From NCBI GenBank assembly GCA_965204945.1, contig OZ242022.1:3629788-3693787 (forward strand): a DNA stretch of 64,000 nucleotides, written 5' to 3'. The notes under the pieces are model-generated. The model was not told the origin of the DNA, searched no databases, and saw nothing but the letters and a program-made list of their open reading frames with translations. This stretch comes from Limisphaerales bacterium. GTDB taxonomy: Bacteria > Verrucomicrobiota > Verrucomicrobiia > Limisphaerales > AAA164-E04. The position numbers and the translations under genes are program-made. Below, piece by piece: positions 1,946 through 61,677 of this stretch; the first letter of the stretch is position 1; each line of letters begins with the position of its first letter.

Positions 1946-2209
1946 CAAGGTTGACTTGAGCAATCCTTGACCGGCTTCTGAACCGCTAAAAACGAGTTCG
2001 TTTTCATAATTTTCCCAGACACGAAGGCTATCTTCTTCGATTCAATTTTGGAATGCAAGATTTTTTTTGATGGTTCTTTTGTCCGTCCGCGCGCGCGGGG
2101 GGAAGAGGATGGTTGCGTTTGGGAGGAGAGGGAGGAACTTTTTCTTGCCGATTGTTTCGATTTTTTTGAAGATGCGCTTTTGGGGAGATTCTTTTTTGTT
2201 GATTGAAAG

Positions 2210-2764
2210 ATGGCGGATTTTGACAAAGTTCCTATTCCTGAAGAGTTTTGGTCGTTTGCGGATGGGCGGCCGTTTCGGGCTTGCGTGGTTTGCGGCGAGG
2301 GTTTGTGGGCGGACGGCGGGCGGTTTTATGTGGTTGAGAAAGTTTACAGCGAGGGCGAGGTTGTTTTTGAGTATGCCGTTTGCTTTTCTTGTCAGCGGCG
2401 GTTGGAGGCGGAGCTTTCGCAACAATCGGTTAAGTTGATTGCGCATTATTTTGACGAGCATGTGGATTGGGCGCAGATTCGCGGGATTGGAGAGTTGTCG
2501 TCTTCTGGCGAGGGCGCTGCTTTGTCTGGGTTGTCTCGTTGTCTTATTACTGGGAAGCGGGCTTTTGAGTGCAAGGAGTATCATATTTTGGCGGTGTGTT
2601 TTGGAGAAAATCTTCTGGCGAGTCCGTTTCTGATTGGCGACGAGGCTGTTGAAAGCATTCAAAAGCTTGTTTCCCGGAAGACTAGGGAGCGGCTGGATGG
2701 TTTTGTGGAGGAGTTCCTCGGCTTGCCTCCGGCGGTGAAGAATCCTTTGCCGTGTTTTGGTTAG
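2210..2764 (+). CDS. Hypothetical Cys-rich (putative Zn-binding) protein
   Basis: 184 aa ORF with CVVC and CFSC pairs plus further Cys; directly upstream of hemC. Confidence 0.75.
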   Translation: MADFDKVPIPEEFWSFADGRPFRACVVCGEGLWADGGRFYVVEKVYSEGEVVFEYAVCFSCQRRLEAELSQQSVKLIAHYFDEHVDWAQIRGIGELSSSGEGAALSGLSRCLITGKRAFECKEYHILAVCFGENLLASPFLIGDEAVESIQKLVSRKTRERLDGFVEEFLGLPPAVKNPLPCFG

Positions 2765-2789
2765 GGCGCGCTGGTTTGTTAGGGGGCGA

Positions 2790-3803
2790 ATGTCTTTGAA
2801 GATTCCGAATCGTCCGTTGCGTCTTGCGACTCGGGGTTCTGCTTTGGCGCTTGCTCAGGCGCATTGGGTTCGGGGTTGTTTGCAAAGTTTGCTGCCGGGT
2901 TTGCGGGTTGAGGTTCGGGTTTTTAAGACGGAGGGAGATTGGTTGCAAGGCAAGGCGCAAAATGAAATTTCCGTTTCTCTTCCCAAAGGCTTGTTCACGA
3001 AAGAGTTGGAGAACACTCTTTTGGAAGGCGAAGCGGATTTGGCCGTTCATAGTCTCAAGGATTTGCCAATTGATCTGCCGGACGGTCTTTGTCTTGCGGC
3101 GGTTGCGCCGCGGGAAGATGCGCGGGATGTGTTGCTTACTAATCGGCCGATTGCGGCGGATGGCAATCCGTTGTGTTCTTTGCCGCCGGGCGCCGCCGTT
3201 GGGACGGGAAGTTCGCGGCGGCGGGCTTTTCTTTTGGCGGCGGGATTGAAGTTGCGAGTGGTGTCTTTACGGGGCAATGTGCCGACGAGAATTCGCAAGC
3301 TGGCGGATTCTTCGGATTTAGACGGCATTCTCCTTGCCGCTGCCGGCTTGGAGCGTTTGGGTTACGTTTTGCGAGAAGATCAAGCCGTTGAAGGCAAGGG
3401 CGTTCCGCCAAACATTTTTGCCGCGCTTTTGCCCGTGAGGCATGTCGTTCCCTGCGCCGCACAAGGCGCCGTTGGATTGGAAGCCCGCTTGGAAGATTCG
3501 GCAACGCAGTCTATTTGTCGGCTTTTCAACGACGTTGATTCTCAAATCTGCGTGGAGGCCGAGCGGAGGTTTTTGCAAGCAATGGGCGGCGGTTGCCAAT
3601 CGCCTTTGGCCGCTTATGGTCAACTTGTAGAATCTTCGCTTCGCCTGATGGTTGCCAAGCCGTTGGGCGGAGGCATCAAAATCCTGGAAGGAACAGCTGG
3701 ACGGAATGAAGGAGAGAGGCTGGCTATGGAACTTGCGGCCAAGATGCAATCCGCTTCGCAGGGAGAAACCACAAAAGAGGCTCGGTTGCCTTCAAAATTG
3801 TGA
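2790..3803 (+). CDS. hemC: Hydroxymethylbilane synthase (porphobilinogen deaminase)
   Basis: Motifs LATRGSALALAQA, KGLFTKELE, AVHSLKD, GTGSSRR, LRGNVPTR, GGGCQSP. Start at ATG 2790 preferred over GTG 2757. Confidence 0.97.
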   Translation: MSLKIPNRPLRLATRGSALALAQAHWVRGCLQSLLPGLRVEVRVFKTEGDWLQGKAQNEISVSLPKGLFTKELENTLLEGEADLAVHSLKDLPIDLPDGLCLAAVAPREDARDVLLTNRPIAADGNPLCSLPPGAAVGTGSSRRRAFLLAAGLKLRVVSLRGNVPTRIRKLADSSDLDGILLAAAGLERLGYVLREDQAVEGKGVPPNIFAALLPVRHVVPCAAQGAVGLEARLEDSATQSICRLFNDVDSQICVEAERRFLQAMGGGCQSPLAAYGQLVESSLRLMVAKPLGGGIKILEGTAGRNEGERLAMELAAKMQSASQGETTKEARLPSKL

Positions 3804-3895
3804 TTGTCTTGGCGGGGAAATTCAGGCATAATTTCAAATTCTTGACCTGCGAAGAAAAATCAGGTTCAATGCTCGTCCGGAACCAAGAATTTTTT

Positions 3896-5194
3896 ATGAA
3901 GCCGATTGCAAACATTCTTAAAACTTGTCTGGCCGTCGCACTGGCCAACTCCCTCGCTCTCGCCGCTGAAAACGACGACGCCATCGCCAAGATCAAAGAA
4001 TTTGGCGGCCAAGTTTTGGGCATTGCTCAAAATACGGAAGGCGTCCGAGTCTTGATCCCGCCGAAAACTTTCGAGGGGCGCGTTCTGACGGACGACGACT
4101 TGGCCGTCTTGAAAGACCTAAATCCAGTGATCGAACTGGACTTGAAGAACGCCGGCATTACGGACGCCGGCCTGAAACACCTTTCGCCATTGACCCAGCT
4201 GGAACGGTTGCACTTGGAAAAAACCAAAGTGACCGACGCCGGACTGGTCGATCTCAAAGGATTGACCAAGCTCAAGTATCTCAATCTTTACGGCACCGGA
4301 GTTAGCGACGCCGGCTTGGAACATTTAAAAGGACTCGGCGACCTTCGGAATCTCTACCTCTGGCAAACGAAGGTCACCTTCGAGGCCGCTCAAAAGTTCC
4401 ATGAAGCGGCCGCGGCCGCCGGCAACGAAAACCTGGAAATCAATCTTGGATGGGAAAAAGAGATTCTCAGCAAAACCCGCCTCGCCGCGCTCAAGGCGCA
4501 ACGCGAAAAACTGGAAACCGAAGCCGACAAAACGGATCCGGCCAAAGTGGCCGTCGTGGAGGATCCAGACTTCAAAACCCATATTTTGCCGATCTTCCAA
4601 AACCACTGCGTGCAGTGCCACGGCGAAGAAAAGCAAAAAGAAGCGCTTCGCTTGGACAGCTACGAGTATGCCGTGAAAGGAAGCGAACACGGGGCGGTCG
4701 TCGTGGCGGAGGACTTGATCGAAAGCACGCTTTTCCAACGAATTACTCTGCCCAAAGACGACGACGACATCATGCCGCCCAAAGACGGACCGCTCTCGAA
4801 AGACGAAATCGCCCTGATTAAAAACTGGATCGCCAACGGAGCGAAGGCCGAAGCGGAAGTCAAACCGGCCGCGGCGCCAAAGATTGCCGAGAAAAAACCA
4901 GAGGGGAGCAGTGTGTTTGTCGAATACGTCCTTCCCATTTTCCAATCCACCTGCGTCGATTGCCACGGCGAAGAAAAACAAAAGGCCGGCCTGAGACTGG
5001 ATTCCATCGCCGCCGTTCTCAAAGGAGGCAAAGAAGGCGCCGTAGTCGCCGCCGGCAAACCCGAAGAAAGTCCTCTGTATCAGAGAATCATCCTTCCTAA
5101 AGACGACGACGACATCATGCCGCCGAAGGGCGATCCCTTGAACAAAGCGCAGACCGACTTGATCAAACTCTGGATCGCCAGCGGAGCCAAGTAA
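3896..5194 (+). CDS. Secreted LRR plus two planctomycete-type c-type cytochrome domains
   Basis: Signal peptide; RI-like LRRs (LHLEKTKVTDAGL, LNLYGTGVSDAGL); two CxxCH sites (CVQCH, CVDCH), each followed by LRLDS...MPPK. Confidence 0.9.
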   Translation: MKPIANILKTCLAVALANSLALAAENDDAIAKIKEFGGQVLGIAQNTEGVRVLIPPKTFEGRVLTDDDLAVLKDLNPVIELDLKNAGITDAGLKHLSPLTQLERLHLEKTKVTDAGLVDLKGLTKLKYLNLYGTGVSDAGLEHLKGLGDLRNLYLWQTKVTFEAAQKFHEAAAAAGNENLEINLGWEKEILSKTRLAALKAQREKLETEADKTDPAKVAVVEDPDFKTHILPIFQNHCVQCHGEEKQKEALRLDSYEYAVKGSEHGAVVVAEDLIESTLFQRITLPKDDDDIMPPKDGPLSKDEIALIKNWIANGAKAEAEVKPAAAPKIAEKKPEGSSVFVEYVLPIFQSTCVDCHGEEKQKAGLRLDSIAAVLKGGKEGAVVAAGKPEESPLYQRIILPKDDDDIMPPKGDPLNKAQTDLIKLWIASGAK

Positions 5195-5276
5195 GCGCGG
5201 CTTCCTAAAAACCTTTGCGGACAAAGCCAAACTCCGTTGTTATACAAGTTCTCAAAAAAAAACAGCGTCAAAGTAG

Positions 5277-5304
5277 TTGACTTGCCGAAGAAAATGGCTA
5301 TTTT
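5277..5304 (+). promoter_or_regulatory. Putative sigma70 promoter of rplM
   Basis: TTGACT-16 bp-TATTTT, about 30 bp upstream of the rplM ATG. Confidence 0.45.
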
Positions 5305-5333
5305 AGTTGCGCTTTTTGTTTGCGAAAATGTTC

Positions 5334-5768
5334 ATGAAAACACATCTGCCAAAAATTGACGTTCAAAAACGCGTGTGGCACGTCATTGACGCCGACGGCC
5401 TCGTTCTCGGCCGCTTGGCAGCCAAAATCGCCAACGTTCTGCGCGGGAAAAACAAACCCGTTTTTACGCCTCATTTGGACGCCGGAGACTTCGTCGTCGT
5501 CGTGAACGCTGAAAAAGTCAAACTGACCGGAAACAAAAACGAACAAAAGATTTACTCCTCCTACTCCGGCTGGCGAGGCGGCCAAAAACGCCGAACCGTT
5601 AAAGACTTGCGGGCCAAGCACCCCGACAGAATCATCACTCACGCCGTCAAAGGAATGATTCCCAAAAACCGACTGGGAAAGAGGCTGCTGACCAAACTTA
5701 AAGTTTACGCGGGACCCAAACACCCCCATGCCGCTCAACATCCCTCTCCGCTGACGCTAAACATATAA
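5334..5768 (+). CDS. rplM: 50S ribosomal protein L13
   Basis: WHVIDADGLVLGRLAAKIA, FTPHLDAGDFVVVVNAEKV, KLKVYAGPKHPHAAQ. Confidence 0.98.
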   Translation: MKTHLPKIDVQKRVWHVIDADGLVLGRLAAKIANVLRGKNKPVFTPHLDAGDFVVVVNAEKVKLTGNKNEQKIYSSYSGWRGGQKRRTVKDLRAKHPDRIITHAVKGMIPKNRLGKRLLTKLKVYAGPKHPHAAQHPSPLTLNI

Positions 5769-5783
5769 AAGAAGAATCTTTCT

Positions 5784-6731
5784 ATGGAATCAGAAAAACC
5801 AATCATCCGCCTTCAAACAGGCCAAAAAGATCATCTCCAAATCGTTCCCTCCTGCGGGGATAATGTTCCTATCGGCATGCTCTCTCTCCAAGAAACGCAA
5901 GCTCTCGACCTTTGGCAAGATGCCGGAATCCACCTTTGGTTGAGGCAGCCTCTCGAAAACGGCCGCCATTTGATCGGCGAGATAAACAAACAAGGCGATG
6001 CCGCTTCAAGCCATCCAGAATACAGAGAATTACCCGAAGGCAAGCAACCTTTTGCGGACAATCCCAACTATCAAGGAGGCATTCGCTTTGATTCCGTGAA
6101 ATCCGCAGTCCAATATCTGACGCGCTACTTTGCAGTGGAATTATGCCCTCCCCTATCTTGGAAAGACCTTGGTTTAGAGATGCCCGCCTACCTTTCCTCT
6201 ACATCCCTCCATTTAGAAAATCCGGCGGAGACTCCAGCCCAAACCCAACCCGAAGAAGAAAAAATCGAAGATTCTACACCGTTGCCTCGCGCAAAGGAAC
6301 AAGAATCGGAAGAGCCGGAAGAAAACCAGCGGGTATTGTCCTTGACGAGCGAACATACAGCCACCGGTCGCCGCAAAACCGCTGTGGCTCAAGTTCGAAT
6401 TGCCTCCGGCGATGGAAAAATCACCGTCAACGGCCGGGCTTTTGAGAATTACTTCCCCCTAAAAGCCCATCAAAAAATCGCCATTCATCCACTCTATCTA
6501 GTCAATGTTTCCGAGCATCTCGACGTCTGCATCAAAGTTCGAGGCGGCGGCCTCTCCGGCCAAGCCGAGGCAACTCGACACGGCATTTCCCGCGCTTTGC
6601 TTAAGATTGACGCCGACTTACGCCCTCGCCTTAAGTCCGAAGGCTTGCTCACCCGCGACCCACGCATGAAAGAGCGCAAAAAATACGGACAACCCGGCGC
6701 CCGGCGCCGCTTCCAATACAGCAAACGATAA
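5784..6731 (+). CDS. rpsI: 30S ribosomal protein S9 with ~186-aa N-terminal extension
   Basis: C-terminal ~129 aa are canonical S9 (TGRRKTAVA, GGGLSGQAEA, LLTRDPRMKERKKYG, RRRFQYSKR); frame is open from ATG 15 bp after the rplM stop. Confidence 0.93.
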   Translation: MESEKPIIRLQTGQKDHLQIVPSCGDNVPIGMLSLQETQALDLWQDAGIHLWLRQPLENGRHLIGEINKQGDAASSHPEYRELPEGKQPFADNPNYQGGIRFDSVKSAVQYLTRYFAVELCPPLSWKDLGLEMPAYLSSTSLHLENPAETPAQTQPEEEKIEDSTPLPRAKEQESEEPEENQRVLSLTSEHTATGRRKTAVAQVRIASGDGKITVNGRAFENYFPLKAHQKIAIHPLYLVNVSEHLDVCIKVRGGGLSGQAEATRHGISRALLKIDADLRPRLKSEGLLTRDPRMKERKKYGQPGARRRFQYSKR

Positions 6732-6904
6732 GGAAATCATCTGCCAGAACGCCGATTTTCGAACGGAGAAAACGCAAACTTGGCGAAATGAAAGATTGAA
6801 AGTTTTCCCGTTTCCCTGAAAAAAATCGCTCGCCCGTTGTTCCAGCCAATCGCCGCTGTCCGCTTGGACAAAACATGGTCGTTCGGAAAAGGAGATAAAA
6901 TTAT

Positions 6905-6938
6905 TTGTCGTTTTACTGTGTATATCCTATATTCACAG
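6905..6938 (+). promoter_or_regulatory. Promoter with overlapping palindromic GntR (YtrA-type) operator
   Basis: TTGTCG(6905)-17 bp-TATATT(6928); inverted repeat CTGTGTATAT-CCT-ATATTCACAG (6916-6938, 9/10 pairing) covers the -10. Confidence 0.65.
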
Positions 6939-6944
6939 AAGGCT

Positions 6945-7367
6945 ATGGCGCAAAACGACAACGTTGCCGTAAAGATCGGGCCGATTTCCCCGGCGGGTTC
7001 AGGACCGCTCTACCAACAAATTATCGCTGGATTCAAACGAGAAATTGGAGACAACCGTCTCTCGGAAGGCGCTCCGCTGCCCTCGTTTCGATTGATGGCC
7101 AAACAACTCTTGGTGAGTGTCATCACCGTCAAACGCGCTTACGAAGAACTGGAACAGGAAGGCATCGTCTACCGTTGCCAAGGGCTTGGCACCTTTGTCG
7201 CCGCAGACGGCCGTAACCGCATCCGCGCCAGCAAACAAAAACGCGCCAAGTCTTTCATTCAATCCGGCATCAGGGAGGCTAACGAGTCTGGATTAAGCCT
7301 CGAAGAAACCAAGAAATGGATTGACCAAACCGTCACTGAAACCTTCCACCGCAATCCGCAATTATGA
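6945..7367 (+). CDS. GntR family transcriptional regulator (YtrA subfamily)
   Basis: PLYQQI...LPSFR.MA..L.VS.ITVKRAYEELE.EG......G.GTFV; short C-terminal domain; precedes ABC genes. Confidence 0.93.
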   Translation: MAQNDNVAVKIGPISPAGSGPLYQQIIAGFKREIGDNRLSEGAPLPSFRLMAKQLLVSVITVKRAYEELEQEGIVYRCQGLGTFVAADGRNRIRASKQKRAKSFIQSGIREANESGLSLEETKKWIDQTVTETFHRNPQL

Positions 7368-8230
7368 ACCATTCAAACGCCATTGAAATCCGCCAACTCG
7401 CCAAACGTTTCCCTCAATTCCAACTCGGCCCGCTGGATATGACCGTTCCGGCCGACGCGGTTTACGGTTTTATCGGCCCCAACGGATCGGGAAAAACAAC
7501 CACCTTAGACCTTATGTTCGGCATGGGTTTTCGAGATTCCGGCAGCATTCGAATTCTCGGCCTCGATCACCAGCGAGACGAAGTTGCGGTCAAGCAACAA
7601 ACCGCTTACATGAGCCCTGAATTGGACTATGACTCTTGGGGAAATGTGAAGCGAGCCGTCCTCTTCATTCGCGGCTTTTACGACAACTGGGATCAAGCCT
7701 ATTGCGACGACTTGCTCGCGCGTTTCAAGATCGAACCAACAGCTAAAATTTCCTCCCTCTCTTTTGGCAACAAGGTAAAACTTTCCTTAGTTCTCGCCCT
7801 TGCCCGCCGTCCCAAAGTGATTGTTCTCGACGAGCCGACCGTCGGCATCGACGCTCTTTCCAAACGAGAACTCTTCGCCCAACTACTTTCCCTGATGAGC
7901 GGCAGCGGGCGCACCGTCCTGATTTCCTCGCACAGCCTCGCCGACTTGGAGCGCTTTGCCGATCACATCGGCGTGATTGACGAAGGCCGGATGATTTTGG
8001 AAGGGCGAATCGACAAAATCTTGGAATCTTGGCGCCACGTTGACTTCAACCTTGCCGACGAACCGCCGCCAAACGCCCGCATTGTGGATCGAGACGGCAA
8101 TCGCTTCCGGATGTTGACCAACTCGGCAAGCCAATACAAACAACTTTTGCTGAGCCGAGGCGCAGACCATATCTCCGTCCACCCCGTAACTTTGGAAGAA
8201 CTGCTCGTTGGCCTTGTAAAAGGAAAATAA
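7364..8230 (+). CDS. ABC transporter ATP-binding protein (YtrB-like)
   Basis: Walker A GPNGSGKTT, signature LSFG, Walker B IVLDEP, H-loop ISSH; ATGA overlap with the regulator. Confidence 0.95.
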   Translation: MNHSNAIEIRQLAKRFPQFQLGPLDMTVPADAVYGFIGPNGSGKTTTLDLMFGMGFRDSGSIRILGLDHQRDEVAVKQQTAYMSPELDYDSWGNVKRAVLFIRGFYDNWDQAYCDDLLARFKIEPTAKISSLSFGNKVKLSLVLALARRPKVIVLDEPTVGIDALSKRELFAQLLSLMSGSGRTVLISSHSLADLERFADHIGVIDEGRMILEGRIDKILESWRHVDFNLADEPPPNARIVDRDGNRFRMLTNSASQYKQLLLSRGADHISVHPVTLEELLVGLVKGK

Positions 8231-8233
8231 ACT

Positions 8234-9523
8234 ATGAACGCTACCCTCATTCGAGATTTCCTCTGGCGCCGCCGGCTACTGATTGGAATAGCCAGCATCG
8301 CGCATTTTATCATTTATACCGGCCCTGTTGCCAAAGGGTATAGCTTCATCCTGCTTTTCTCATACTTCATTGGGATAATCGTATTTTCACCCGCTCTGAC
8401 GAAAGAAATGGTTCGTCAGATATTGTTGTTGCCCATTGAACGCGCTTGCTTAGTCAAAACTTATTGGGGAATAAGCGTGGCTCTTCCCACCGCTTGGTTC
8501 ATGTTACTGAGCATCATTGCAACGCTGTTCACTTCCCAACTACCATGGTCTACTATTGTGCAAATTCCCGCAGTGGCTTTTGCTTGTTTTAGCCTCAATT
8601 TTTTTGCGGATCGGTTTCTAATCCGACAATTCTCCTTTAAGAGAAAAATTTTTTATGGAACTTTCACATTGATTGGCATATTAGTCGCCTTTTTTGCGAG
8701 CAATATAGGACAATTGCGTCCCGAACACTTTTTTGCAATCTCAGTGGGATCTATCTTCTCGGCAATCGGCTGCAGAGAAACGAACGTCATGCTCGTCAGT
8801 TTGGCAAGCGAAGGCAACTCAGAGGCAAATACATCCACACCGCGCAAACGCCAACAAAAAGAGTTTGCGGAAAATCTAAGCGGCTTCGCTCATTTTGCCG
8901 CAACTTCAATGTTTCAATTCTTGAAAGGGACAATCATTTTATTAGTCTACCTCACTCTGCTAATGACGATAGTGTTAACGATAGTAGAAGCAGTACAAAT
9001 ATACGTCTTCAGATCAAAGGGAGTTATAGAACTGTCGCGAATTATTGACTTTGTTCCCATGTGGCATTCTCTTATTTTTTGTGTAATTCCTTATATCTAT
9101 ATTGCTGCAAAATTGTCCAGTCTTAGGGTATTTCGCGGGTTGCCTTTGAGCGCAAGACAGATCAGTTCCCGGTTTTTCCAACTTCTCTTCGGCGTTGTGT
9201 TAATTCAGGCTGTGCTCTATAGTCTTCTCATGTTTCTTGCCGGCGAAGGCAACTACGACGTTCCCCAACTCTTGATATTATTAGGGTTTTCCGGAATCGG
9301 ATGTCTCTTCATGCCTCTGGTTTTCCACTTCGGTTTTGATAAGATTCTATTCGCCTTTGCTTTTCTTTTCGTTCCCTTTTTGAGTATTGGAGCGTCGCTA
9401 TTCTTCACGATGGCGGTGCTGGGGATTGGGTTGGTTTGCGTCTTGATTTCTTGGTTGCTAACTTGGCGAGTTCTCGCCCGCTCTTCGCAAGCGTATCGCC
9501 GCAATTTGAGGCGTTTTTCGTAA
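8234..9523 (+). CDS. Polytopic membrane protein, probable ABC permease
   Basis: 429 aa with about 12 hydrophobic segments; starts 3 bp after the ATPase stop. Confidence 0.8.
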   Translation: MNATLIRDFLWRRRLLIGIASIAHFIIYTGPVAKGYSFILLFSYFIGIIVFSPALTKEMVRQILLLPIERACLVKTYWGISVALPTAWFMLLSIIATLFTSQLPWSTIVQIPAVAFACFSLNFFADRFLIRQFSFKRKIFYGTFTLIGILVAFFASNIGQLRPEHFFAISVGSIFSAIGCRETNVMLVSLASEGNSEANTSTPRKRQQKEFAENLSGFAHFAATSMFQFLKGTIILLVYLTLLMTIVLTIVEAVQIYVFRSKGVIELSRIIDFVPMWHSLIFCVIPYIYIAAKLSSLRVFRGLPLSARQISSRFFQLLFGVVLIQAVLYSLLMFLAGEGNYDVPQLLILLGFSGIGCLFMPLVFHFGFDKILFAFAFLFVPFLSIGASLFFTMAVLGIGLVCVLISWLLTWRVLARSSQAYRRNLRRFS

Positions 9524-9706
9524 AGCAACAACGAGCTGTCGATTACTCCGCGTTGCAAAGGAAGGAAGAGTCTGCCGTTCTCATCCAACAAGTCTTCGAA
9601 AAACAAACTTGCGGCAAGCCGTCGGTTTTTCGCCAATTGAGCGCGTTGGGAAAACTATGACGTTGGCATTTGTGGTTTGTTTGGCATAAGGTGAGGCGCC
9701 AAACAC

Positions 9707-15016: not shown

Positions 15017-15023
15017 TGGAGGC

Positions 15024-55274: not shown

Positions 55275-55361
55275 CCGCCGAAGGATTCCCTCCCGCAAGA
55301 TTGGATGGTCGGCGAGGATTTTTCACATTTCTCAAAAGGAAAAATTCGAATCAAAATGGAA

Positions 55362-56252
55362 ATGGGAAGGGAGATTGCAGTTGCCGGTGAGACGGATTCA
55401 AAGGGAAAATATCGCGGGCGAATCGCGCCAACCCCCTCCGGCTATCTCCATTTGGGACATGCCCGAACCTTTTGGCAAGCGCAGGCCAGAGCGACCGAAC
55501 GCAACGGACAACTCATCCTTCGCGTGGAAGATTTGGACGCCGCCCGCTCTCAACCTCGATTTTTGGAAGCAATGTTGGAAGACCTTCGCTGGTTTGGTCT
55601 CCGTTGGGATGAAGGCCCAGACATCGAAGGAAGAAGCGGACCTTACCAGCAAAGCGCCCGATTCCAGCGGTATCGCCACGCGTTGGAACGATTGATCGTT
55701 TTGGGGCGAGTCTATCGCTGTGATTGCTCGCGCAAAGACATCCAAACGGCCTCTTTGGCGCCGCATCTTGACGACGAAGGCCCCTTATATCCGGGAACTT
55801 GCCGCAAAAACACGGGCAAAGCGCCGGCGGAAAAACAAAGAAAACCCAACTGGCGATTCCGCGTTCCAGACAACCGGCAAATTGCCTTTGAGGACGGCAA
55901 CTTGGGAAACTTTTCCGCCGTTGCCGGCGTTCATTTCGGAGACTTCGTCGTGTGGCGGCAAGACAATACGCCCGCTTATCAACTGGCGGCGGTTGTGGAC
56001 GATCATGCGATGGGCATCACCGAAGTTGTCCGCGGCGAAGACCTCTTGCTCTCGACTTGCCGCCAACTGCTTCTTTACAAAGCGTTGAACTGGTCGGCGC
56101 CCGAATTTTTCCACTGCCCGCTGATGAAGGACGCCCGCGGAGAACGCTTGTCCAAGCGGAATCAGTCTCTGGCCTTGCGTTCTTTGCGCGAGCAAGGCCT
56201 TACGCCCGAGCAAGCGCGAGAGCGACACGGCATCCAGCCGATCCGCTTTTAG
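55362..56252 (+). CDS. gluQ: tRNA glutamyl-Q(34) synthetase
   Basis: RIAPTPSGYLHLGH, YRCDCSRK, YQLAAVVDD, VVRGEDL, RLSKR; no anticodon-binding domain. Start approximate. Confidence 0.92.
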   Translation: MGREIAVAGETDSKGKYRGRIAPTPSGYLHLGHARTFWQAQARATERNGQLILRVEDLDAARSQPRFLEAMLEDLRWFGLRWDEGPDIEGRSGPYQQSARFQRYRHALERLIVLGRVYRCDCSRKDIQTASLAPHLDDEGPLYPGTCRKNTGKAPAEKQRKPNWRFRVPDNRQIAFEDGNLGNFSAVAGVHFGDFVVWRQDNTPAYQLAAVVDDHAMGITEVVRGEDLLLSTCRQLLLYKALNWSAPEFFHCPLMKDARGERLSKRNQSLALRSLREQGLTPEQARERHGIQPIRF

Positions 56253-57238
56253 CCCGCGGCGATACCAAAACGAGAAATGTTGCCATCTCCGGTTCCAAAG
56301 CATTCTCTAAATTGGGCGAAAACCTGCTCGACCGGAAGACTTCGCAACCCCTTCTCGTGACGGACGATGACGAATCGATCGCTGCGCGGACGCCAAACCG
56401 TTTCTTTGCTTTCCCCCCACAAAACCAGCCCCGGCAACCCGACGGCCGCAGCCAGATGAGAAATGCCGGAATCGTGACCGATAAATCCGCCGCATTCCGC
56501 CAGCAGAGAAGCGAGTTGAGGCAGCGGCATGCAAAATTCCAAACGGGAGCGAGAAGCGTCCAGCGACGGTTGCAGTCTTTGGAATGTTTCCCGCTCGGCT
56601 TCCCCGCCGACCAGTAGCAAGTTCCAGTTTGTCTTTGCCTGAATTTGCGCAATCAGTTGCCGCCAATGTTCGACGGGCCAGTTCTTGGACAAACTGCCGC
56701 TGCCGGGATGAATCGCCAGCCAAGAACGGTTGCCATTAGCGCTTCGGCGAGGAATTCGAATTTGCGGCCTGCTATCGGCGGCAAAGACGGTCAATTGTTT
56801 TAGCGGCTCCAGCAAAATTTCGGCGGCGTGAACGTCTCCCCTTTCCTCCGGCTGATGCGGACCTTGAATGAAAGTCAAAGTCTTCGAGTCCGTCGCGCTT
56901 TCTAAATTTGCCCGAAAACAACGGCGGACGTTGTTTTGAAAAATCCCATCCGGATCGTAGAGATAGGAAAGAACGACGTCGAATCGACCAAAGTATTCCA
57001 TCCAATCCTCGTCCAACGTTCCTTGGACAGCGAAAAAACCCGCCAACGCGGGCGCTTCAATGGCTTTGGCATCATCCGCCAGTCCGGCAAAACGGGCTAA
57101 ATCGGCTATGTTGGGATAGCCGAGAATTTCCACTTTGGCTTGAGGAAAAGCCTCTCGAATCGCCCGAAGCGCCGGCAAAGTCAAAATAAAATCGCCAATC
57201 GCCCCGCCTCGTATCACCAGTATGCGGCCGGCGGACAT
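56249..57238 (-). CDS. Glycosyltransferase family 9 (heptosyltransferase-like)
   Basis: RGGAIGDFIL..P, IHPGSG...KNWP, FIGHDSGISHLAAA. Confidence 0.92.
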   Translation of the reverse strand: MSAGRILVIRGGAIGDFILTLPALRAIREAFPQAKVEILGYPNIADLARFAGLADDAKAIEAPALAGFFAVQGTLDEDWMEYFGRFDVVLSYLYDPDGIFQNNVRRCFRANLESATDSKTLTFIQGPHQPEERGDVHAAEILLEPLKQLTVFAADSRPQIRIPRRSANGNRSWLAIHPGSGSLSKNWPVEHWRQLIAQIQAKTNWNLLLVGGEAERETFQRLQPSLDASRSRLEFCMPLPQLASLLAECGGFIGHDSGISHLAAAVGLPGLVLWGESKETVWRPRSDRFVIVRHEKGLRSLPVEQVFAQFRECFGTGDGNISRFGIAAG

Positions 57239-57385
57239 TGCGTTTTGAAAAGAACTTTTTTCGCGCAGCTTCGCTCGCTCTCATCTTCGGCGTTTGTCAA
57301 TGGCAACGGCTGGAATTTTTCCCGTTGCCAAAAGCAATCTCTTTTAGGAAAAATCCTAAAGCGTCGCCGCGCTAACGGCCAAAAC

Positions 57386-58207
57386 TTACTTGGGCGCGCT
57401 ACTTCGCTCGGACATCCAAAGCACGTCTCGGTTGTTGGGCGTTCGCTGTTTATCCTCAATTCTCCCGCCGTAGTTAGGGGGCTTTATCGTTCTCGGATCC
57501 GTCCATTTTTTGATTTCAGAATGGCCGTCGGCGAAGGAGAAGCCGCAGGCGCCGTTGTGGTAACTGGCGGGAAAGTCAATGATTCTTGCTTGGGCCAAGT
57601 CCGCTTCACTACGCATTTCTACGGCGAAGGCGGCGTCGTTGATAGTGCCGGGATGCTCGTCCACCAAAACCCAAGTCATGGAAGGGCCGGGATCGGTCAA
57701 GTCGGTCTCTTTGGCGTAAACGCGGAATCTCGAGGACGGAAGCCAACCCCCAAAGTCAAAGCTTTGGCTCATGGAGTTGCTGCGGACGCGCGGCCAAGTT
57801 TTGCCGTCGGCTTTGACGGTTACCTTGTCCGCCGGACATTTCCAAACTTCCGCCGTTCGGCCGGTATACTCAAAAAGCGGGCTTTTCTCGACGTGCATTG
57901 TGACATCCCAGTTGTCTCGCCTGTTGGCGGCGTAAGTTAGAATGCCTTTTGTCCAGCTTGGCCGGCCGTCGCGGTCTCCCAGAGAGGAAACCAGCCAGCC
58001 TTCGTTGTCGTGGGCGTAGAACTTCCAAGCCAGCATCAAGGTGCGCAGATTGTTCATGCAAGAGATGCCGTGCGCCTTGGCTTTGGCCTTGCCGAGCGCG
58101 GGCAGAAGCATGCCGGCCAAAATGGCGATGATGGCAATCACCACCAGCAGTTCGATGAGAGTGAATCCGGTTGCCCGGTTAATATTTGAGGATGGGATTA
58201 TTTTCAT
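57386..58207 (-). CDS. Prepilin-type N-terminal cleavage/methylation protein with H-X9-DG C-terminus
   Basis: [25 protein letters not shown]; [14 protein letters not shown]. Confidence 0.93.
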
Positions 58208-58276
58208 GATGTCAAGAATATTCTGATTTCAAGTGAATGAGGGCAATTGAAAGTTTTATTTTGGCGGCGAGTCAAG

Positions 58277-58831
58277 TTAAAAAACAAAGATGCCGAGGCT
58301 GATTAGCAGGATGGCAAAGGCGCTTCGCAGGCCGCAGACGAGCCGCAGGCGTGCGGGGTTGGCCGTTTTCCACAGGATGATGTCTCGAACGCGCCACGGC
58401 GAGATGGTGAACCAAACGCCGCCCAGAACCCAAAGGTATGCCCAAGTAATGATGATGAGTCGCCATTGGCTGTCGTGCCAGCGCGCGGTTTCGACCATAA
58501 GTTTGGCGAGCAGGAGCAGAAGAACGGCGTAGCCGCGCACGGCGAGGAAGTCTCTGAGGTAGATGCAGACGGCGATGCCCAGGCAGCTGAAGAAAAGGAA
58601 CATGAGGTTTTTGAAGCGGACGAAGTCGCTGACTTCTTTTTGCGTTTGGTTGACGACAGCGAGGAACCAAAGAGTGGCCAGCGCGACAAGGCAAAGGCCC
58701 CAAGCGGGGGAGCGGGGGAACTTTTGGAGACGGTTGCCAAAGTCGTTCGGCCGGATTAGGCCGTATATTTGAGGAAGGAGGTAGCCGAGTCCGAGGAGAA
58801 TGGAAAGGTTGGCGAGCGAGATTTGGGGCAT
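58277..58831 (-). CDS. Hypothetical polytopic membrane protein
   Basis: 184 aa, about 6 TM segments; starts 5 bp downstream of the miaB stop. Confidence 0.8.
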   Translation of the reverse strand: MPQISLANLSILLGLGYLLPQIYGLIRPNDFGNRLQKFPRSPAWGLCLVALATLWFLAVVNQTQKEVSDFVRFKNLMFLFFSCLGIAVCIYLRDFLAVRGYAVLLLLLAKLMVETARWHDSQWRLIIITWAYLWVLGGVWFTISPWRVRDIILWKTANPARLRLVCGLRSAFAILLISLGIFVF

Positions 58832-58836
58832 AAGTT

Positions 58837-60189
58837 TTAAGCAGGTTGGCCGGTTGCGGGGAGGCCGTAGAGAGTGAACGAGCCGGCGCGGTAAATGTTT
58901 AGGTGGAGGATTTTTCCGATATGGCGGTTTTCCCCTTCAAAGACGACGATTTTGTTGCAGGAGGTGCGGCCTTGAAGGCGGTTGGGATTGCGGCGGCTGG
59001 GGCCTTCGACGAGGATTGGCGCGGTTTTGCCGATGAATTTTTGGTATTTTGGGATGCCGATTTCGGAGATTTTCTCCAGCAATTGAGCGTGCCTGCGCTG
59101 ATTGATTTCTTGCGGAATTTGCTCTTCCATCTCGGCGGCCGGCGTGTCTTGGCGGGGCGAGTATTTGAAGACGAAGGCGTTGTCAAATTGAGCTTCTTCG
59201 GCTAAGGAAAGGGTTTCTTGAAAGTCGGATTCGGTTTCGCCGGGGAAGGCGACGATGATGTCGGTGGTGATGCCGATGTCGGGTTTGGCTTGGCGGAGTT
59301 TGCGGATGATTTCCAGAAAACGTTCTCTGGTGTAGCCTCGGCGCATGCGTTTGAGGACGCGGTCGCTGCCGCTTTGGAGGGGGACGTGGGCACTGGCGCA
59401 GAGTTTGGGAAGTGTGCGGTAGGCCTCGATCAAGTCGTTTCCGTAGCCTTTGGGATGCGGCGAGGTGAAGCGGATTCGCTGGATGCCGGGGATTTGGTGG
59501 ACGGCTTCGAGGAGTTGGACGAAGGCTGATTTTCCGTTTTTGGCGCCGATTTCCCGCTTGCCGTAGCTGGTGACGATTTGGCCGAGAAGCGTGACTTCTT
59601 TGACGTTGGCGGCGGCTAGTTCTTGGCATTCCTTGACGATGTCTTGGATGGAACGGCTTCGTTCGCGGCCGCGGGTGCGGGGGACGATGCAAAAAGCGCA
59701 GTGTTGGTTGCAACCTTGCATGATGCTGACATAAGCGGTTGGCGGGCGGTTTGTCGTTTGCCCGGCGGCGAGGTGTTCTCGGATGGTTGCCTCGCTTCCC
59801 GGTTCTTCTTCGGTGTCGCAAATTTTCCCGCGTTCTCCGGACAAGATTTGGTCGAGGTAGTCTCCGGCGCGATGGAATTTTTGAGTGCCGAGAACCAAGT
59901 CTACGTCCGGCAGTTTGTCCATCAGGCTTTGCCCTCGGTTTTGGGCCATGCAACCCATAAATCCGAGAATGGCGCCGCGGCGTCGGGTTTGGCCGGCAAG
60001 GTGCGCCATTTTTCCGAATGCTTTTTGTTCCGCTTGGTCGCGCACGCTACAGGTGTTGAGCAGGATTATGTCTGCCTGCTGTTCGGACTTTGCCAGAGCG
60101 TAGCCTCTGGCCGAGAGTTGGGCGGCGACGGCTTCTGAATCGCGCTCGTTCATTTGGCATCCGTAAGTTTTGATGAATACGCTTGGCAT
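58837..60189 (-). CDS. miaB: tRNA-i6A37 methylthiotransferase
   Basis: TYGCQMN, NTCSVR, GCNQHCAFC, RFTSPHP, QSGSD, YSPR..T.A, TRAM domain. Confidence 0.97.
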   Translation of the reverse strand: MPSVFIKTYGCQMNERDSEAVAAQLSARGYALAKSEQQADIILLNTCSVRDQAEQKAFGKMAHLAGQTRRRGAILGFMGCMAQNRGQSLMDKLPDVDLVLGTQKFHRAGDYLDQILSGERGKICDTEEEPGSEATIREHLAAGQTTNRPPTAYVSIMQGCNQHCAFCIVPRTRGRERSRSIQDIVKECQELAAANVKEVTLLGQIVTSYGKREIGAKNGKSAFVQLLEAVHQIPGIQRIRFTSPHPKGYGNDLIEAYRTLPKLCASAHVPLQSGSDRVLKRMRRGYTRERFLEIIRKLRQAKPDIGITTDIIVAFPGETESDFQETLSLAEEAQFDNAFVFKYSPRQDTPAAEMEEQIPQEINQRRHAQLLEKISEIGIPKYQKFIGKTAPILVEGPSRRNPNRLQGRTSCNKIVVFEGENRHIGKILHLNIYRAGSFTLYGLPATGQPA

Positions 60190-60324
60190 TTTTTAAGGCG
60201 CTTGAATTTACGGAAGGAAGGGCGCGTTTGCCAAGATGGAATCTTGCGGACAAGACGTCGACTGCGCGCGGGCGAGTTGTTTTTGCTTTGTTTTTTTCAT
60301 TTTCCTCAGCGCTTTGTCCGAGCC

Positions 60325-61677
60325 TTATGCAGTGGAACGGCCGGTATCGGAAGCGCCGGCTTCGGGCTTGGCGGAGCGTTCGGGCGGAATGGGAACGGCT
60401 AGAATTTTGTCGATGCGATGCTTGTCCATGTCGACTACTTCGAAGCGATAGTTTTCGTGTTGGAAGCTGTCGCCTTCGGAAGGGATTTTGCCGAACAAGG
60501 AGAGGACGAAACCGCCGACGCTGTGGTAGTCGTCGACGTCTTCGTTGGGGAGGTTTTTGAGTTGGAGCAGGTTTTTGAAGTCGTCTGCTTCCATCATGGC
60601 GTCGACGAGATAGCTTCCGTCTTCTCGTTTGGCGAAGGGTTCTCGGAGTTTTTCTTCTTCCGAAGGGATGTCGCCGACGATGGCTTCGAGGACGTCGATG
60701 AGGGTTACTAAGCCGGCAACGCCGCCGAATTCATCGGTGACCAGAGCAATGTGTTTGCCGGATTGTTTGAAGGATTCCAAGAGTTTTACGGCGATCATGG
60801 TTTCCGGGACGATGAGGGGGGGAACGGCCAGGTTTTTGAGGCTGGTTGGGACGCCGGCCGACATGTTGGCCCACATTGCCTTGACGGAGATCATTCCGAC
60901 GACGTTGTCGCGGTTACCCGTATAAAGGGGAAAGTGGGAGTGGTTGCTGGTCACAATTTTGCGCCAATTGACGTTGTCGCTGTCGCCAGCGTTGAGCCAG
61001 ACGATTTTAGGGCGGGGCGTCATGAGATCGCCGACGCGCTCTTCATCCAGCCGCATAACGCCTTCGACCATGCCAATTTCGGCTTGATGAAAGACACCGG
61101 CGTGCGACCCCTGCTCCACCATTACTTGCACTTCTTCGCGGGTGATGGCCGGCTCTTCGGATCGTTTGACGCCGATCAAGTCCAAAAGCGAGTCGGTCGT
61201 TCGGCCAATCGCCCAAACAAAGGGCGCGGCCAGTTTGCCAAGCTTGCTGATGGGGCCGGCGATGAGCATAGAGGTTTTTTCCGGCGCATGAAGGGCGAGG
61301 CGTTTGGGAACGATTTCGCCCAGCACAAGCGACGCAAAGGTAATGAAGGCGACGACCAAACCAAAGGCGATTTCTTCGTGAAAGCCTTGCAGCCAAGGTG
61401 TTTCTAGGCTTTTGGCGAGTTTGTCCGCAATTTTTGCGCCTCCAAAAGCGCCCGCCAGAATTCCAATCAACGTGATGCCAAATTGAACGGTGGAAAGAAA
61501 GTGATTGGGCGTTTCCACCAAGTCCAGCACTTTTCTGGCCTTTTTGTCGCCGCTCCGGGCGAGGTGTTTCAGCTTGGGCTTGCGGGAAGAGACGACCGCC
61601 ATTTCCGCCATGGCAAATACGCCGTTGCCCAAGATGAGAACTAAGACGACGACGAGGTGAAAACTGATTTCTGACAT
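60325..61677 (-). CDS. Hemolysin/CorC-family (CNNM + CBS + CorC_HlyC) protein
   Basis: NGVFAMAEMA, QFGIT, GEIVPK, DEFGG..GLVT.IDVLEAIVG. Confidence 0.94.
   Translation of the reverse strand: MSEISFHLVVVLVLILGNGVFAMAEMAVVSSRKPKLKHLARSGDKKARKVLDLVETPNHFLSTVQFGITLIGILAGAFGGAKIADKLAKSLETPWLQGFHEEIAFGLVVAFITFASLVLGEIVPKRLALHAPEKTSMLIAGPISKLGKLAAPFVWAIGRTTDSLLDLIGVKRSEEPAITREEVQVMVEQGSHAGVFHQAEIGMVEGVMRLDEERVGDLMTPRPKIVWLNAGDSDNVNWRKIVTSNHSHFPLYTGNRDNVVGMISVKAMWANMSAGVPTSLKNLAVPPLIVPETMIAVKLLESFKQSGKHIALVTDEFGGVAGLVTLIDVLEAIVGDIPSEEEKLREPFAKREDGSYLVDAMMEADDFKNLLQLKNLPNEDVDDYHSVGGFVLSLFGKIPSEGDSFQHENYRFEVVDMDKHRIDKILAVPIPPERSAKPEAGASDTGRSTA

Follow-up and report, generated by a model that had tools for sequence, protein, structure and literature searches.

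Saw-tooth strand asymmetry switching at inter-operon spacers in one clade of Limisphaerales bacteria

Strand asymmetry across the window

The window examined in this study is a 64,000-nt stretch of the 4.3-Mb chromosome of an uncultured Limisphaerales bacterium. Keto skew, S=(G+T-A-C)/N, was followed along its + strand, where an up-jump is a switch from A/C to G/T, and the resulting saw-teeth are listed in Table 1 together with the genes, repeats and non-syntenic segments found among them.

Table 1. Saw-teeth of keto skew (S, + strand) and associated features in the window
Feature	Position	Strand	Remarks
Up-jump	2045		S about 0 to +0.4; divergent spacer; left end of synteny block relative to G009 and G005
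Two saw-teeth	2045..12190		S +0.41 to -0.30 by 5.5 kb
hemC	2757-3803	+	Pfam; G/T-rich coding strand
Variable non-syntenic spacer	12190..13740		Encloses up-jump at about 13025
Multi-copy repeat	12238-12760		Within spacer 12190..13740
Saw-tooth	13025..19992		S +0.44 to -0.28
HMGL-like gene	13918-14889	+	Pfam; G/T-rich coding strand
Strongest saw-tooth	19992..24070		Both ends are synteny breakpoints
LTD/CotH	20076-24005	+	Pfam; G/T-rich coding strand
Saw-tooth	24070..29420		Starts at convergent gene junction; S +0.31 to about 0
Saw-tooth	29420..36733		S +0.46 to -0.30
Calx-beta/LRR gene, multi-copy	36242-38566	-	
Shorter saw-tooth	36733..40344		Starts within multi-copy Calx-beta/LRR gene
Saw-tooth	40344..44450		S +0.50 to -0.34
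Low-GC non-syntenic island	44450..48149		S near 0
Repeat	44450-45553		In low-GC island; about 25 diverged copies in G009
Saw-tooth	48149..58800		S +0.44 to about 0; left end is a synteny breakpoint
HtrA	50172-51653	+	Pfam; G/T-rich coding strand
Weaker saw-tooth	58800..64000		S +0.33 to about 0; - genes, inside collinear block

The alternating blocks reported in a preliminary description of this DNA are real. All 10 of the G+T-rich blocks that it listed have S between +0.13 and +0.41 (z of +5 to +21 versus binomial), all seven A+C-rich blocks have S between -0.14 and -0.22 (z of -3 to -9), GC skew and TA skew share their sign in these blocks, and its five 60-nt hand counts were exact on recount. 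Local amplitude of S reaches about 0.5 in 250-nt bins. As was also claimed, the open reading frames are intact, with translations matching Pfam families, and the blocks are independent of gene direction, since + and - genes are found in either kind. While the four Pfam-confirmed + genes in Table 1 have G/T-rich coding strands, those of their neighbours on the - strand are A/C-rich.

The first interval (2045..12190) is a single block collinear with G009 that contains + genes only (hemC, cytochrome c, rplM-rpsI and a permease); within it, S shows a weak second rise at about 9.0 kb before dropping to -0.29 at 11.5-12.7 kb. The saw-tooth from 13025 spans the HMGL-like gene, RNase P RNA and two - genes. 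Over 20.0-22.5 kb of the strongest saw-tooth, S ranges from +0.36 to +0.58 with a GC skew of 0.6; S is down to -0.20 at 23.75 kb, and both stretches lie in the LTD/CotH gene. The up-jump at 29.4 kb lies in the interior of a collinear block and is followed by an unbroken fall, first across - genes at 29502-33756 (fmt among them) and then across + genes at 33727-35187. The DNA at 35.2-40.6 kb is a non-syntenic cassette, and the saw-tooth from 40344 matches near-exactly a 3.8-kb synteny block containing ppk (40666-44448), which has a different location in G009, G005 and G006. Gene orientations in the saw-tooth from 48149 are -, -, +, -, - (PALP enzyme, CT398-like, HtrA and gltX).

Genome-wide size, shape and distribution

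Genome-wide, the standard deviation (sd) of S in 500-nt bins is about 0.155, compared to 0.045 from binomial sampling and 0.080 after synonymous codons were redrawn with proteins unchanged; the skew therefore exceeds both controls, and because an sd of 0.080 survives the redraw, protein composition carries part of the variance. The sd is only 0.04-0.08 in 14 sampled relatives. The strong trait is present in G000, G009, G005 and G006 only, with G001 intermediate, so that the saw-tooth skew is limited to one clade and is absent from congeneric genomes. In the skewed genomes, GC skew and TA skew are correlated (+0.4 to +0.7). Autocorrelation of S is down to 0 by 3 kb, and the distribution of per-gene skew is unimodal, not bimodal.

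The sharp-up, gradual-down shape noted in the window holds across the genome, with up-jumps exceeding down-jumps 2-3:1 (256:137 at |step|>0.3, then 64:27 and 15:5 as the threshold rises) and increments of S positively skewed in all nine of the genome regions. The S profile is thus N-shaped, with sharp rises and a slow fall between them, but this shape is only partly saw-tooth because the up:down ratio is just 2-3:1. Sharp switches are mostly intergenic, as had been suggested (78% of up-jumps versus 28% expected); 12-16% of inter-operon spacers carry a large up-step, compared to 4% of intra-operon junctions, and up-jump frequency is equal at convergent and divergent junctions. Polarity flips sharply from A+C to G+T at roughly 10-15% of inter-operon spacers, domains are about 2-10 kb long, and the skew decays over about 2-3 kb on either side of the spacer; the strand running 5' to 3' away from the spacer is therefore G+T-rich.

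In bacterial replichore skew, the leading strand has G>C and T>A, with two switches per chromosome, and in Borrelia and similar genomes this skew reaches all codon positions and protein composition. The present pattern shares the G+T versus A+C polarity, the C>T and A>G changes on one strand and the effects on codon positions and protein, but differs in having hundreds of switches, about ten times the amplitude, and no counterpart in congeneric genomes. Ordinary replichore skew, with about two switches per chromosome at origin and terminus, is ruled out by the 256 up-jumps and 137 down-jumps. Within the same genome, 4-fold skew at replichore scale amounts to just +0.022 and -0.040, and the local amplitude exceeds this 0.02-0.04 about tenfold; relative to dnaA/oriC, the gene-strand bias is 50.8%.

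Substitutions that maintain the skew

Substitutions at third positions were polarised over 42 kb on the G000 and G009 branches using G005 as outgroup. In domains with S>+0.15, the ratio of C>T to G>A was 2.28 (p=1e-9), of A>G to T>C 4.65 (p=7e-15) and of C>G to G>C 3.6; in domains with S<-0.15, the first two ratios were 0.51 and 0.28, and where |S|<0.15 both were about 1. The G-over-C and T-over-A excess thus has its source in asymmetric C>T (and A>G) change, and since substitutions on two recent branches match the local skew direction, the local strand-specific mutational process put forward in the preliminary description is supported; the sources that it named for such a process (many replication or restart sites, resection or ssDNA exposure) are candidates. 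The bias is strong, tied to the strand and ongoing, with one strand gaining T from C, G from A and G from C. The asymmetry is seen in + genes, - genes and non-coding DNA alike, is somewhat stronger where the G+T-rich strand is the coding strand, and reverses between adjacent domains of one collinear block. The ortholog of the hemC block in G006 has the opposite skew, with nearly all differences being directional, and in relatives with flat profiles the ppk locus is flat as well.

Relative to neutral domains, C>T occurs at 1.46 times, G>A at 0.59 times, A>G at 1.82 times and T>C at 0.44 times the rate. Third-position divergence is not higher in skewed domains (about 0.070 and 0.086 versus 0.086 elsewhere), and complementary rates have roughly constant sums across domains. 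Unraised divergence and constant sums agree less well with extra local mutagenesis than with a fixed process divided between strands (by fork direction or strand choice) or with a fixation bias. Trinucleotide context was sought and none was found, as multiplying the single-base skews nearly reproduces the trinucleotide strand ratios. Hypermutation by a sequence-specific deaminase (APOBEC-, DddA- or SsdA-like) was rejected, the mutated C having no preferred di- or trinucleotide context.

Relation of the skew to genes and proteins

Third-position skew on the + strand, compared over 120 codons on each side of gene boundaries, was correlated whatever the gene orientations (r=0.66 for ++, 0.56 for +-, 0.61 for -+ and 0.62 for --). 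The skew runs continuously through convergent and divergent junctions, and flank skew is alike for + and - genes. Orientation explains 2.2% of the variance of S and thus fails as an explanation, with mean S being -0.026 in + genes and +0.021 in - genes, i.e., coding strands are slightly A+C-rich. The skew belongs to the DNA strand and is unrelated to which strand is transcribed. The preliminary description had placed the bias mostly at synonymous positions, which needs correction: 4-fold skew tracks skew at first (r=0.7) and second (r=0.4) positions. Between the lowest and the highest skew decile, the share of residues with G/T-rich codons (Gly, Val, Trp, Phe, Cys, Leu) goes up from 28% to 36%, and that of residues with A/C-rich codons (Thr, Pro, His, Gln, Asn, Lys) goes down from 29% to 19%. 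The effect extends to every codon position and to the composition of proteins.

A cause at the level of genes (transcription-associated mutation, codon-usage selection or amino-acid composition) or a technical artefact (chimeric assembly or strand-specific sequencing error) is extremely improbable. The slight A+C-richness of coding strands, the sd left after the synonymous redraw and the somewhat stronger asymmetry with a G+T-rich coding strand are all in keeping with a genic contribution, but the small share of variance due to orientation, the continuity over junctions, the same rate asymmetry in non-coding DNA and the inconsistent polarity of highly expressed genes argue against it. Artefact is difficult to reconcile with intact, Pfam-matching reading frames and with a pattern common to four or five separate genomes, between which it can be seen as substitutions. 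Transcription-associated asymmetry is known as non-template C>T in E. coli and as A>G excess in mammalian genes. It resembles the present pattern in mutation types and gene-sized scale, and was rejected given r2=0.022 for orientation, the junction-continuous skew and the involvement of non-coding DNA. Heterogeneity in codon usage or amino acids was likewise rejected, as the redraw leaves only 0.080, non-coding DNA is asymmetric and positions 1 and 2 co-vary.

Rearrangement and the skew switches

Gene order in G000 is extremely rearranged, with synteny blocks of 3-20 kb relative to a genome of about 91% nucleotide identity. Of the roughly ten up-jumps in the window, six coincide with synteny breakpoints relative to G009, and polarised S inside 29 synteny-block ends is +0.132 versus 0.021 for all spacers (P<1e-4). 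Up-jump spacers also hold strain-specific DNA and gene-order breaks between close relatives.

Blocks thus do coincide with rearrangement breakpoints, a coincidence that the preliminary description had expected to count against a local process, but relic shuffling as the cause is not supported. On that explanation, strong ancestral replichore skew was scattered into a mosaic by very frequent inversions and translocations, which would account for the small synteny blocks, for skew switches at their ends and for the absence of gene-strand bias. However, shuffling of formerly skewed segments predicts strand-symmetric present rates, equally sharp boundaries and no gradient within blocks, whereas present rates are asymmetric and reverse within a single collinear block, gradients lie inside blocks and even single genes, and up-jumps outnumber down-jumps. 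In addition, per-gene skew is unimodal, and relatives outside the clade lack strong skew to shuffle. A relic mosaic is therefore very improbable and already largely refuted.

Candidate processes at the spacers

We hold, tentatively, that the asymmetry may well reflect recurrent outward DNA transactions at spacer hot spots, either recombination and repair synthesis or dispersed initiation of DNA synthesis. Such transactions would recur at hot-spot spacers and proceed outwards, so that the outward-running strand would repeatedly be single-stranded, with its C and A exposed to deamination; alternatively, this strand may be newly synthesised with G:T-type misincorporations. The transaction would most likely be recombinational exchange or repair at variable loci, with 3' tails or repair synthesis extending from these loci into conserved flanks. 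A closely related possibility is initiation of DNA synthesis at the spacers, primed by recombination or R-loops. Against outward transactions, a search for a shared sequence motif at up-jump spacers found none, DnaA boxes show no enrichment there, and the GC dip at these spacers equals that at control spacers. Total divergence in skewed domains, which is not raised, also counts against it, and a pure site model leaves the 137 sharp down-jumps unexplained. MutS and UDG are present in all genomes compared, and none of these has Ku; most of the genus, flat genomes included, lacks RNase HI; and no gain or loss of a repair gene tracking the trait was found among these genomes.

Similar asymmetries are known from other systems. 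As in vertebrate mitochondrial DNA, where time spent single-stranded matters, C>T and A>G fall on one strand in a gradient from a start site and A>G is at least as asymmetric as C>T; that molecule, however, is one small strand-displacement replicon, compared to many bidirectional sites on a 4.3-Mb chromosome. Strand-coordinated mutation clusters at resected breaks and in break-induced replication (in yeast, and as kataegis in cancer) likewise form one-strand tracts of kilobases that switch at the break and are tied to rearrangement junctions, but these are single events with a deaminase context, while the present pattern is an evolutionary steady state without context. Its polarity is also opposite to that given by 3'-overhang deamination at a chromosomal double-strand break, so only some recombination and repair scenarios fit.

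Taken on its own, dispersed replication initiation, in which synthesis starts at hundreds of spacers, terminates at random between them and leaves local fork polarity to set the skew, is unlikely. It amounts to the replicon model of mammalian N-domains at kilobase scale, these replication domains having reportedly been treated by Touchon in 2005 and Huvet in 2007. In mammalian N-domains, the profile of S=TA+GC has the form of an N, rising abruptly at fixed sites and declining slowly from one to the next, and domain borders are enriched in evolutionary rearrangement breakpoints (PMC2722678). The bacterial pattern is similar in its N-shaped S, its keto-rich strand running away from the jump and its breakpoints at borders, but it is about 1000-fold smaller (kb rather than Mb), its amplitude reaches about 0.5, and it occurs in a bacterium with dnaA, where genes are not co-oriented with polarity and initiation at jumps is putative. 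Several observations favour dispersed initiation: origin-polarity jumps followed by decay, transition sums that stay about constant as if one replication pass were split by fork direction, the small replichore-scale skew and gene-strand bias, and the clustering of breakpoints at jumps as at human N-domain borders (PMC2722678). Others oppose it, since dnaA is present with a weak conventional skew minimum nearby, the jumps lack enrichment in DnaA boxes and in AT-rich unwinding elements, genes beside up-jumps are co-oriented with putative forks in 166 cases and opposed in 187, the rpoBC/ribosomal-protein region is flat instead of a long ramp, and two simultaneous changes would be required, namely a much stronger intrinsic asymmetry between leading and lagging strands and a changed pattern of initiation. 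It is similarly doubtful that this Limisphaerales sub-clade synthesises its DNA from hundreds of inter-operon hot spots and not mainly from two oriC forks. Priming would then be by recombination or R-loops, fork-polarity domains would measure a few kb, and the same sites would scramble gene order and rewrite protein composition gene by gene.

A strand-specific fixation bias, by polar biased gene conversion or heteroduplex repair from recombination hot spots or by direct selection, is quite improbable. Mutation input would stay unchanged under such a bias, with G and T favoured on the outward strand, and it agrees with favoured changes being raised and their complements lowered by factors fitting one bias coefficient, with the unraised divergence and with the link to hot spots of rearrangement and insertion. 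The known kind of biased conversion, however, enriches G:C on both strands, whereas here GC skew and TA skew move together with GC content constant at jumps; to our knowledge, no repair process prefers keto bases on one defined strand, and selection of such amplitude over coding and non-coding DNA has no obvious target.

Implications

Strand skew is the standard sequence footprint of chromosome replication, and two switches are expected in bacteria. In this free-living clade, the footprint switches hundreds of times, is ongoing and independent of transcription direction, and coincides with breakpoints. Such genomes will mislead origin predictors and skew-based misassembly checks, and also methods that detect horizontal transfer from codon usage and phylogenetic models in which composition is taken as stationary. 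In the search for the responsible gene, congeneric genomes lacking the trait are a natural set for comparison. If recombination or repair hot spots are the cause, the skew would be a sequence-readable map of recombination initiation in a bacterium, and would show hot spots both scrambling gene order and pushing protein composition. If dispersed initiation of DNA synthesis is the cause, the single-origin picture would be overturned for a bacterial lineage.

Saw-tooth keto skew in the window

Keto skew on the + strand, S = (G+T-A-C)/N, was computed at 250-nt resolution, and approximately 10 saw-teeth were observed in the window, with sharp rises separated by slower falls through zero down to -0.2 or -0.35. 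All 17 of the G+T-rich (high S) and A+C-rich (low S) blocks listed in the preliminary description carry the sign assigned to them, GC skew and TA skew vary in concert, and the five 60-nt hand counts of that description are exact. The most extreme block (S of +0.36 to +0.58, GC skew of ~0.6) sits within an intact LTD/CotH gene of 1309 aa, where the DNA is nearly free of C. The table gives the positions of the features.

Genes were called with a home-made three-class codon model and greedy selection, and the calls in the window were compared with Pfam; this model was adopted after a single-class version overlooked genuine G/T-rich genes (hemC and a PALP enzyme). As had been described, the skew affects + and - genes alike, and each kind of block holds both orientations. 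The Pfam-confirmed hemC, HMGL-like, LTD/CotH and HtrA genes lie on the + strand and have G/T-rich coding strands, and the adjoining fmt, gltX, GTPase and miaB-like genes lie on the - strand and have A/C-rich coding strands. The sole Rfam match in the window, RNase P RNA, is located between the HMGL-like and GTPase genes in a G+T-rich domain, off any jump, and no tRNA genes were found in the window. A G13 run lies ~100 nt to the left of the 2.0-kb rise, and a T11 run adjoins the rise at 29.4 kb.

Positions of features discussed in the text, in window coordinates unless a genome is named (G000, host genome; G009, its closest relative sampled)
Feature	Position	Strand	Remarks
Sharp rises of S	~2.0, 9.0, 13.0, 20.0, 24.07, 29.4, 36.7, 40.3, 48.15, 58.8 kb		Rise at 9.0 kb weak
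Most extreme G+T-rich block	20.0-22.5 kb		
LTD/CotH gene	20076-24005	+	
LTD/CotH copies in G009	C1:720512-730783, 836684-845870 (G009)		~110 kb apart
RNase P RNA, bacterial class A	15027-15476	+	Rfam, 228 bits
G13 run	1933-1945		
T11 run	~29322		
Synteny blocks with G009	2.03-12.19, 13.74-24.05, 20.13-35.19, 40.67-44.45, 48.19-64.0 kb		
Multi-copy families	44450-45553, 12238-12760, 1125-1648, 38918-39427, 36169-38100		Fill gaps between synteny blocks
Island	44200-48200		Low GC (38-49%), gene-poor, S ~0
Flat rpoBC/ribosomal-protein region	G000:C1:326000-366000		Absolute S below 0.15 across 40 kb

Magnitude and genome-wide scope

Across the host genome (4.31 Mb, 52% GC, two contigs; the window is C1:3629788-3693787), the standard deviation (sd) of S in 500-nt bins was 0.155, compared to 0.045 for binomial sampling, and the sd of four-fold-site skew per gene was 0.275, compared to 0.07 for sampling. 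When synonymous codons were redrawn for the same proteins the sd of S was still 0.080, and gene orientation accounted for 2.2% of the variance in S. It had been considered that the skew might lie within controls or be explained by amino-acid content or gene orientation; every control was exceeded. Genes seemed to prefer the A/C-rich strand (40% vs 63%), which the 2% orientation effect explains entirely. Skew amplitude along the chromosome was unimodal (median over 25-kb blocks, 0.146), and the region containing rpoBC and the ribosomal-protein cluster is among the very few flat stretches.

The suggestion that the bias is mostly synonymous did not hold, as four-fold skew also tracks skew at first (r ~0.7) and second (~0.4) codon positions. 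From the lowest to the highest skew decile, Gly, Val, Trp, Phe, Cys and Leu together rose from 28% to 36% of residues, and Thr, Pro, His, Gln, Asn and Lys fell from 29% to 19%. The second contig of the host genome (C2, L065; 5117 bp) is A+C-rich end to end (S of -0.12 to -0.44) and has no terminal overlap. A rolling-circle replicon was considered for it and rejected, since it carries ordinary pilin-like (N_methyl/DUF1559) and HTH genes instead; it is probably an unplaced piece of the chromosome rather than a plasmid.

Strand dependence and handedness of the skew

The skew belongs to the DNA strand and not to the gene. Third-position + strand skew, measured over 120 codons on each side of gene boundaries, was correlated across every type of boundary (r=0.66 for ++, 0.56 for +-, 0.61 for -+ and 0.62 for --). 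For neighbouring whole genes the skew correlation was +0.39 in the same orientation and, in coding-strand terms, -0.29 for convergent and -0.15 for divergent pairs, and it vanished at a lag of two genes. Highly expressed genes showed no consistent polarity.

A saw-tooth in skew reads the same off either strand; therefore, a sharp rise followed by a gradual fall is an intrinsic handedness. This shape, first noticed in the window, is borne out genome-wide: sharp switches from A/C-rich to G/T-rich (up-jumps) outnumbered the reverse (down-jumps) by 256 to 137 at an absolute step above 0.3, and by 64 to 27 and 15 to 5 as the threshold was raised. All nine genome regions showed positively skewed increments of S, and in long genes the coding-strand third-position skew dropped by ~0.25 between the 5' and 3' ends, whatever the skew class. 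The switches are also mostly intergenic, as proposed (78% of up-jumps compared to 28% of random positions), occurring at 8.9% of convergent, 8.9% of divergent and ~5% of tandem junctions, and down-jumps fall mostly within genes. Large up-steps were found at 12-16% of inter-operon spacers of any orientation and at 4% of intra-operon junctions, and down-steps at 5-7% of every junction type. Since the up-steps are concentrated at some inter-operon spacers, the saw-tooth resides in a subset of the spacers and is superposed on a broader blocky heterogeneity.

These data bear on a pure operon model, in which skew would ramp along each transcription unit and reset at terminators. The model is rejected because + genes that begin on the right flank of an up-jump (S +0.22) match - genes that end there (+0.19) in G/T-richness, and because large up-steps are equally common at divergent and convergent spacers. 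On the left flank, the corresponding values were -0.19 where a gene starts and -0.15 where one ends.

Present-day substitution patterns

Polarising substitutions against relatives, as the preliminary description had proposed, revealed strand asymmetry matching the sign of the local skew. Three-taxon parsimony was applied to single-lineage changes in 42 kb of the window, with G009 as sister (91.7% identical) and another relative, G005, as outgroup (89%); rates are for third positions, per ancestral base, on the + strand. Where S exceeded +0.15, the rate of C>T was 0.101 compared to 0.045 for G>A (ratio 2.3, p=1e-9), that of A>G was 0.109 compared to 0.023 for T>C (ratio 4.7, p=7e-15), and C>G exceeded G>C 3.6-fold. 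The first two ratios fell to 0.51 and 0.28 where S was below -0.15 and were both ~1 where absolute S was below 0.15. In the domains with S above +0.15 they were 3.1 and 6.0 in + genes, 1.8 and 3.7 in - genes, and 1.9 and 2.2 in non-coding DNA. Parsimony in skewed sequence reportedly overestimates changes from common to rare bases (Eyre-Walker, 1998), a bias that works against the asymmetry observed here. The measured rates imply upkeep of a strong keto skew.

Several explanations can be weighed against these results. If relic skewed segments had been shuffled, current rates would be symmetric, gradients would be absent and up and down edges would be equally numerous; none of these is the case. 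Transcription, codon usage and amino-acid content fail against the controls, the boundary correlations and the polarised rates. A sequence-specific deaminase is unlikely, since multiplying the single-base skews nearly reproduces the trinucleotide strand ratios. Conventional replication is ruled out as the cause: four-fold skew at the replichore scale is only +0.022 and -0.040, and genes show no strand bias relative to dnaA (3.197 Mb)/oriC, 50.8% of them being on the presumed leading strand. In addition, both domain signs occur inside single blocks that are collinear in three genomes, and replichore position therefore cannot explain the asymmetry.

Aligned DNA has the same S profile in G000, G009 and G005. 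In a third relative, G006, the correlation with aligned window DNA is only 0.62, and the hemC block has the opposite sign, with nearly all differences directional; this reversal indicates that the bias is set by genomic context and not by the gene. Across domains, the third-position sums were 0.144, 0.146 and 0.186 for C>T plus G>A and 0.113, 0.132 and 0.134 for A>G plus T>C, and total third-position divergence does not rise in skewed domains. The near-constant complementary sums and unraised divergence caution against simple extra local mutagenesis; they fit a fixed process split between the strands, or a fixation bias.

Distribution among relatives

Of 18 genomes of relatives, sampled at 16-80 kb each, three are strongly skewed (G009, G005 and G006; ppk 92%, 91% and 79% identical; sd of S 0.19, 0.16 and 0.14; GC-TA skew correlation of +0.4 to +0.7) and one is intermediate (G001; ppk 74%, sd 0.12, correlation +0.6). 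The other 14 are flat (sd of 0.04-0.08 in 500-nt bins, correlation ~0), comprising six of the same genus (G007, G002, G003, G008, G010 and G004) as well as members of other genera and families. Because several relatives share it, the trait does not stem from faulty sequencing or assembly of a single genome. In G000, G009 and G006 the orthologous ppk locus shows ramps, and the remaining genomes are flat there; the trait is thus derived and heritable. The skew of ppk at first seemed to differ by 0.2 between G000 and G009, but the loci had been compared out of register, and S is equal at aligned positions.

The presence or absence of MutS, uracil-DNA glycosylase (UDG), RNase HI or Ku did not track the trait. 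Every genome has MutS and the main UDG, and none has Ku. A second, short UDG paralogue occurs only in G003, G007, G008 and G010; the skewed clade lacks it, but so do the flat G002 and G004. The RNase HI family (PF00075) is missing in 8 of the 11 genomes of the genus, flat ones included.

Rearrangement and variable DNA

Gene order is extremely scrambled given ~91% nucleotide identity, and blocks of G000 collinear with a relative are merely 3-20 kb long; for example, 80 kb of G009 corresponds to six such blocks spread over 1.3 Mb. The proposed comparison of switch points with synteny breakpoints placed 6 of the ~10 up-jumps in the window at block ends, and the ppk block is exactly one saw-tooth. 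At 29 block ends (G009 and G005), polarised S was +0.132±0.029 in the first 1 kb inside (76% positive), compared to 0.021 for all spacers and 0.035 for long spacers (resampling P<1e-4), and no polarity was found in the DNA just outside these ends. Conserved blocks thus start G+T-rich on the strand entering them, and the intervening variable DNA is neutral.

The gaps between the G009 blocks in the window consist of variable or repeat DNA. Among the multi-copy families are a ~1.1-kb element with ~25 diverged (~72%) copies in G009, a ~0.5-kb repeat, a small 'RFLRL' gene and Calx-beta paralogues; no Pfam transposase match was found in the families of the window, and ORFs of variable spacers had no Pfam match. 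The low-GC island is missing at the syntenic position in G009, G005 and G006. The LTD/CotH gene is duplicated in G009, and the single G000 copy bridges both G009 contexts, an arrangement that looks like a deletion or fusion via recombination between duplicates.

Search for site determinants

Nothing that determines which spacers become jump sites emerged from the analysis. A search for shared motifs, also proposed earlier, found none common to the up-jump spacers. The enriched 8-9-mers (AAGGTTATG, CCTCTCACC, GGATCGTTGGA, GCGAACAGCG and others) all derive from repeat families, which carry ~10-20 jumps elsewhere in the genome and are absent from the sites in the window. Two of these families, one with GGATCGTTGGA and GCGAACAGCG and one with AAGGTTATG and CCTCTCACC, account for ~20 sites outside the window, and in each the up-jump occupies a constant position within the element. 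Another sequence, TATAGATTG, occurs at two window sites and is not general.

Possible mechanisms and known systems

The polarity requires a gain of G+T on the strand running 5' to 3' away from the site. Such a gain could arise from divergent DNA synthesis from the site, either origin-like or primed by a D-loop or R-loop; from re-synthesis during repair of a recurrent break, in which the 5'-resected strands are refilled with G:T-type misincorporation; or from linear DNA recombinationally replacing a variable locus, whose outward 3' tails would be single-stranded for a time. Deamination of 3' overhangs at a chromosomal break would give the opposite sign. Given that the jumps and the spacers with variable DNA and breakpoints coincide, recombination or repair hot spots are favoured, a tentative choice that we put at close to an even chance. 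The chief alternative, dispersed initiation of synthesis, seems improbable; DnaA boxes are not enriched at up-jumps (0.203 vs 0.203 per kb), and AT-rich unwinding dips show no excess there.

The nearest analogue to the pattern is the skew of mammalian N-domains, which climbs abruptly, declines gradually and is accompanied by an enrichment of breakpoints at domain borders (PMC2722678), and all three features are present here too. However, the scale here is ~1000-fold different and gene co-orientation is not seen; initiation at the jumps, the defining feature of N-domains, would be putative here. The base signature is the same as in bacterial replichore skew and in the mitochondrial single-strand gradient. 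In a full-text literature search, no bacterium was found for which skew domains of kb scale and independent of gene orientation have been described. With a mechanism that we can only infer and descriptive claims that rest on strong statistics, these domains represent a form of strand mutational asymmetry.
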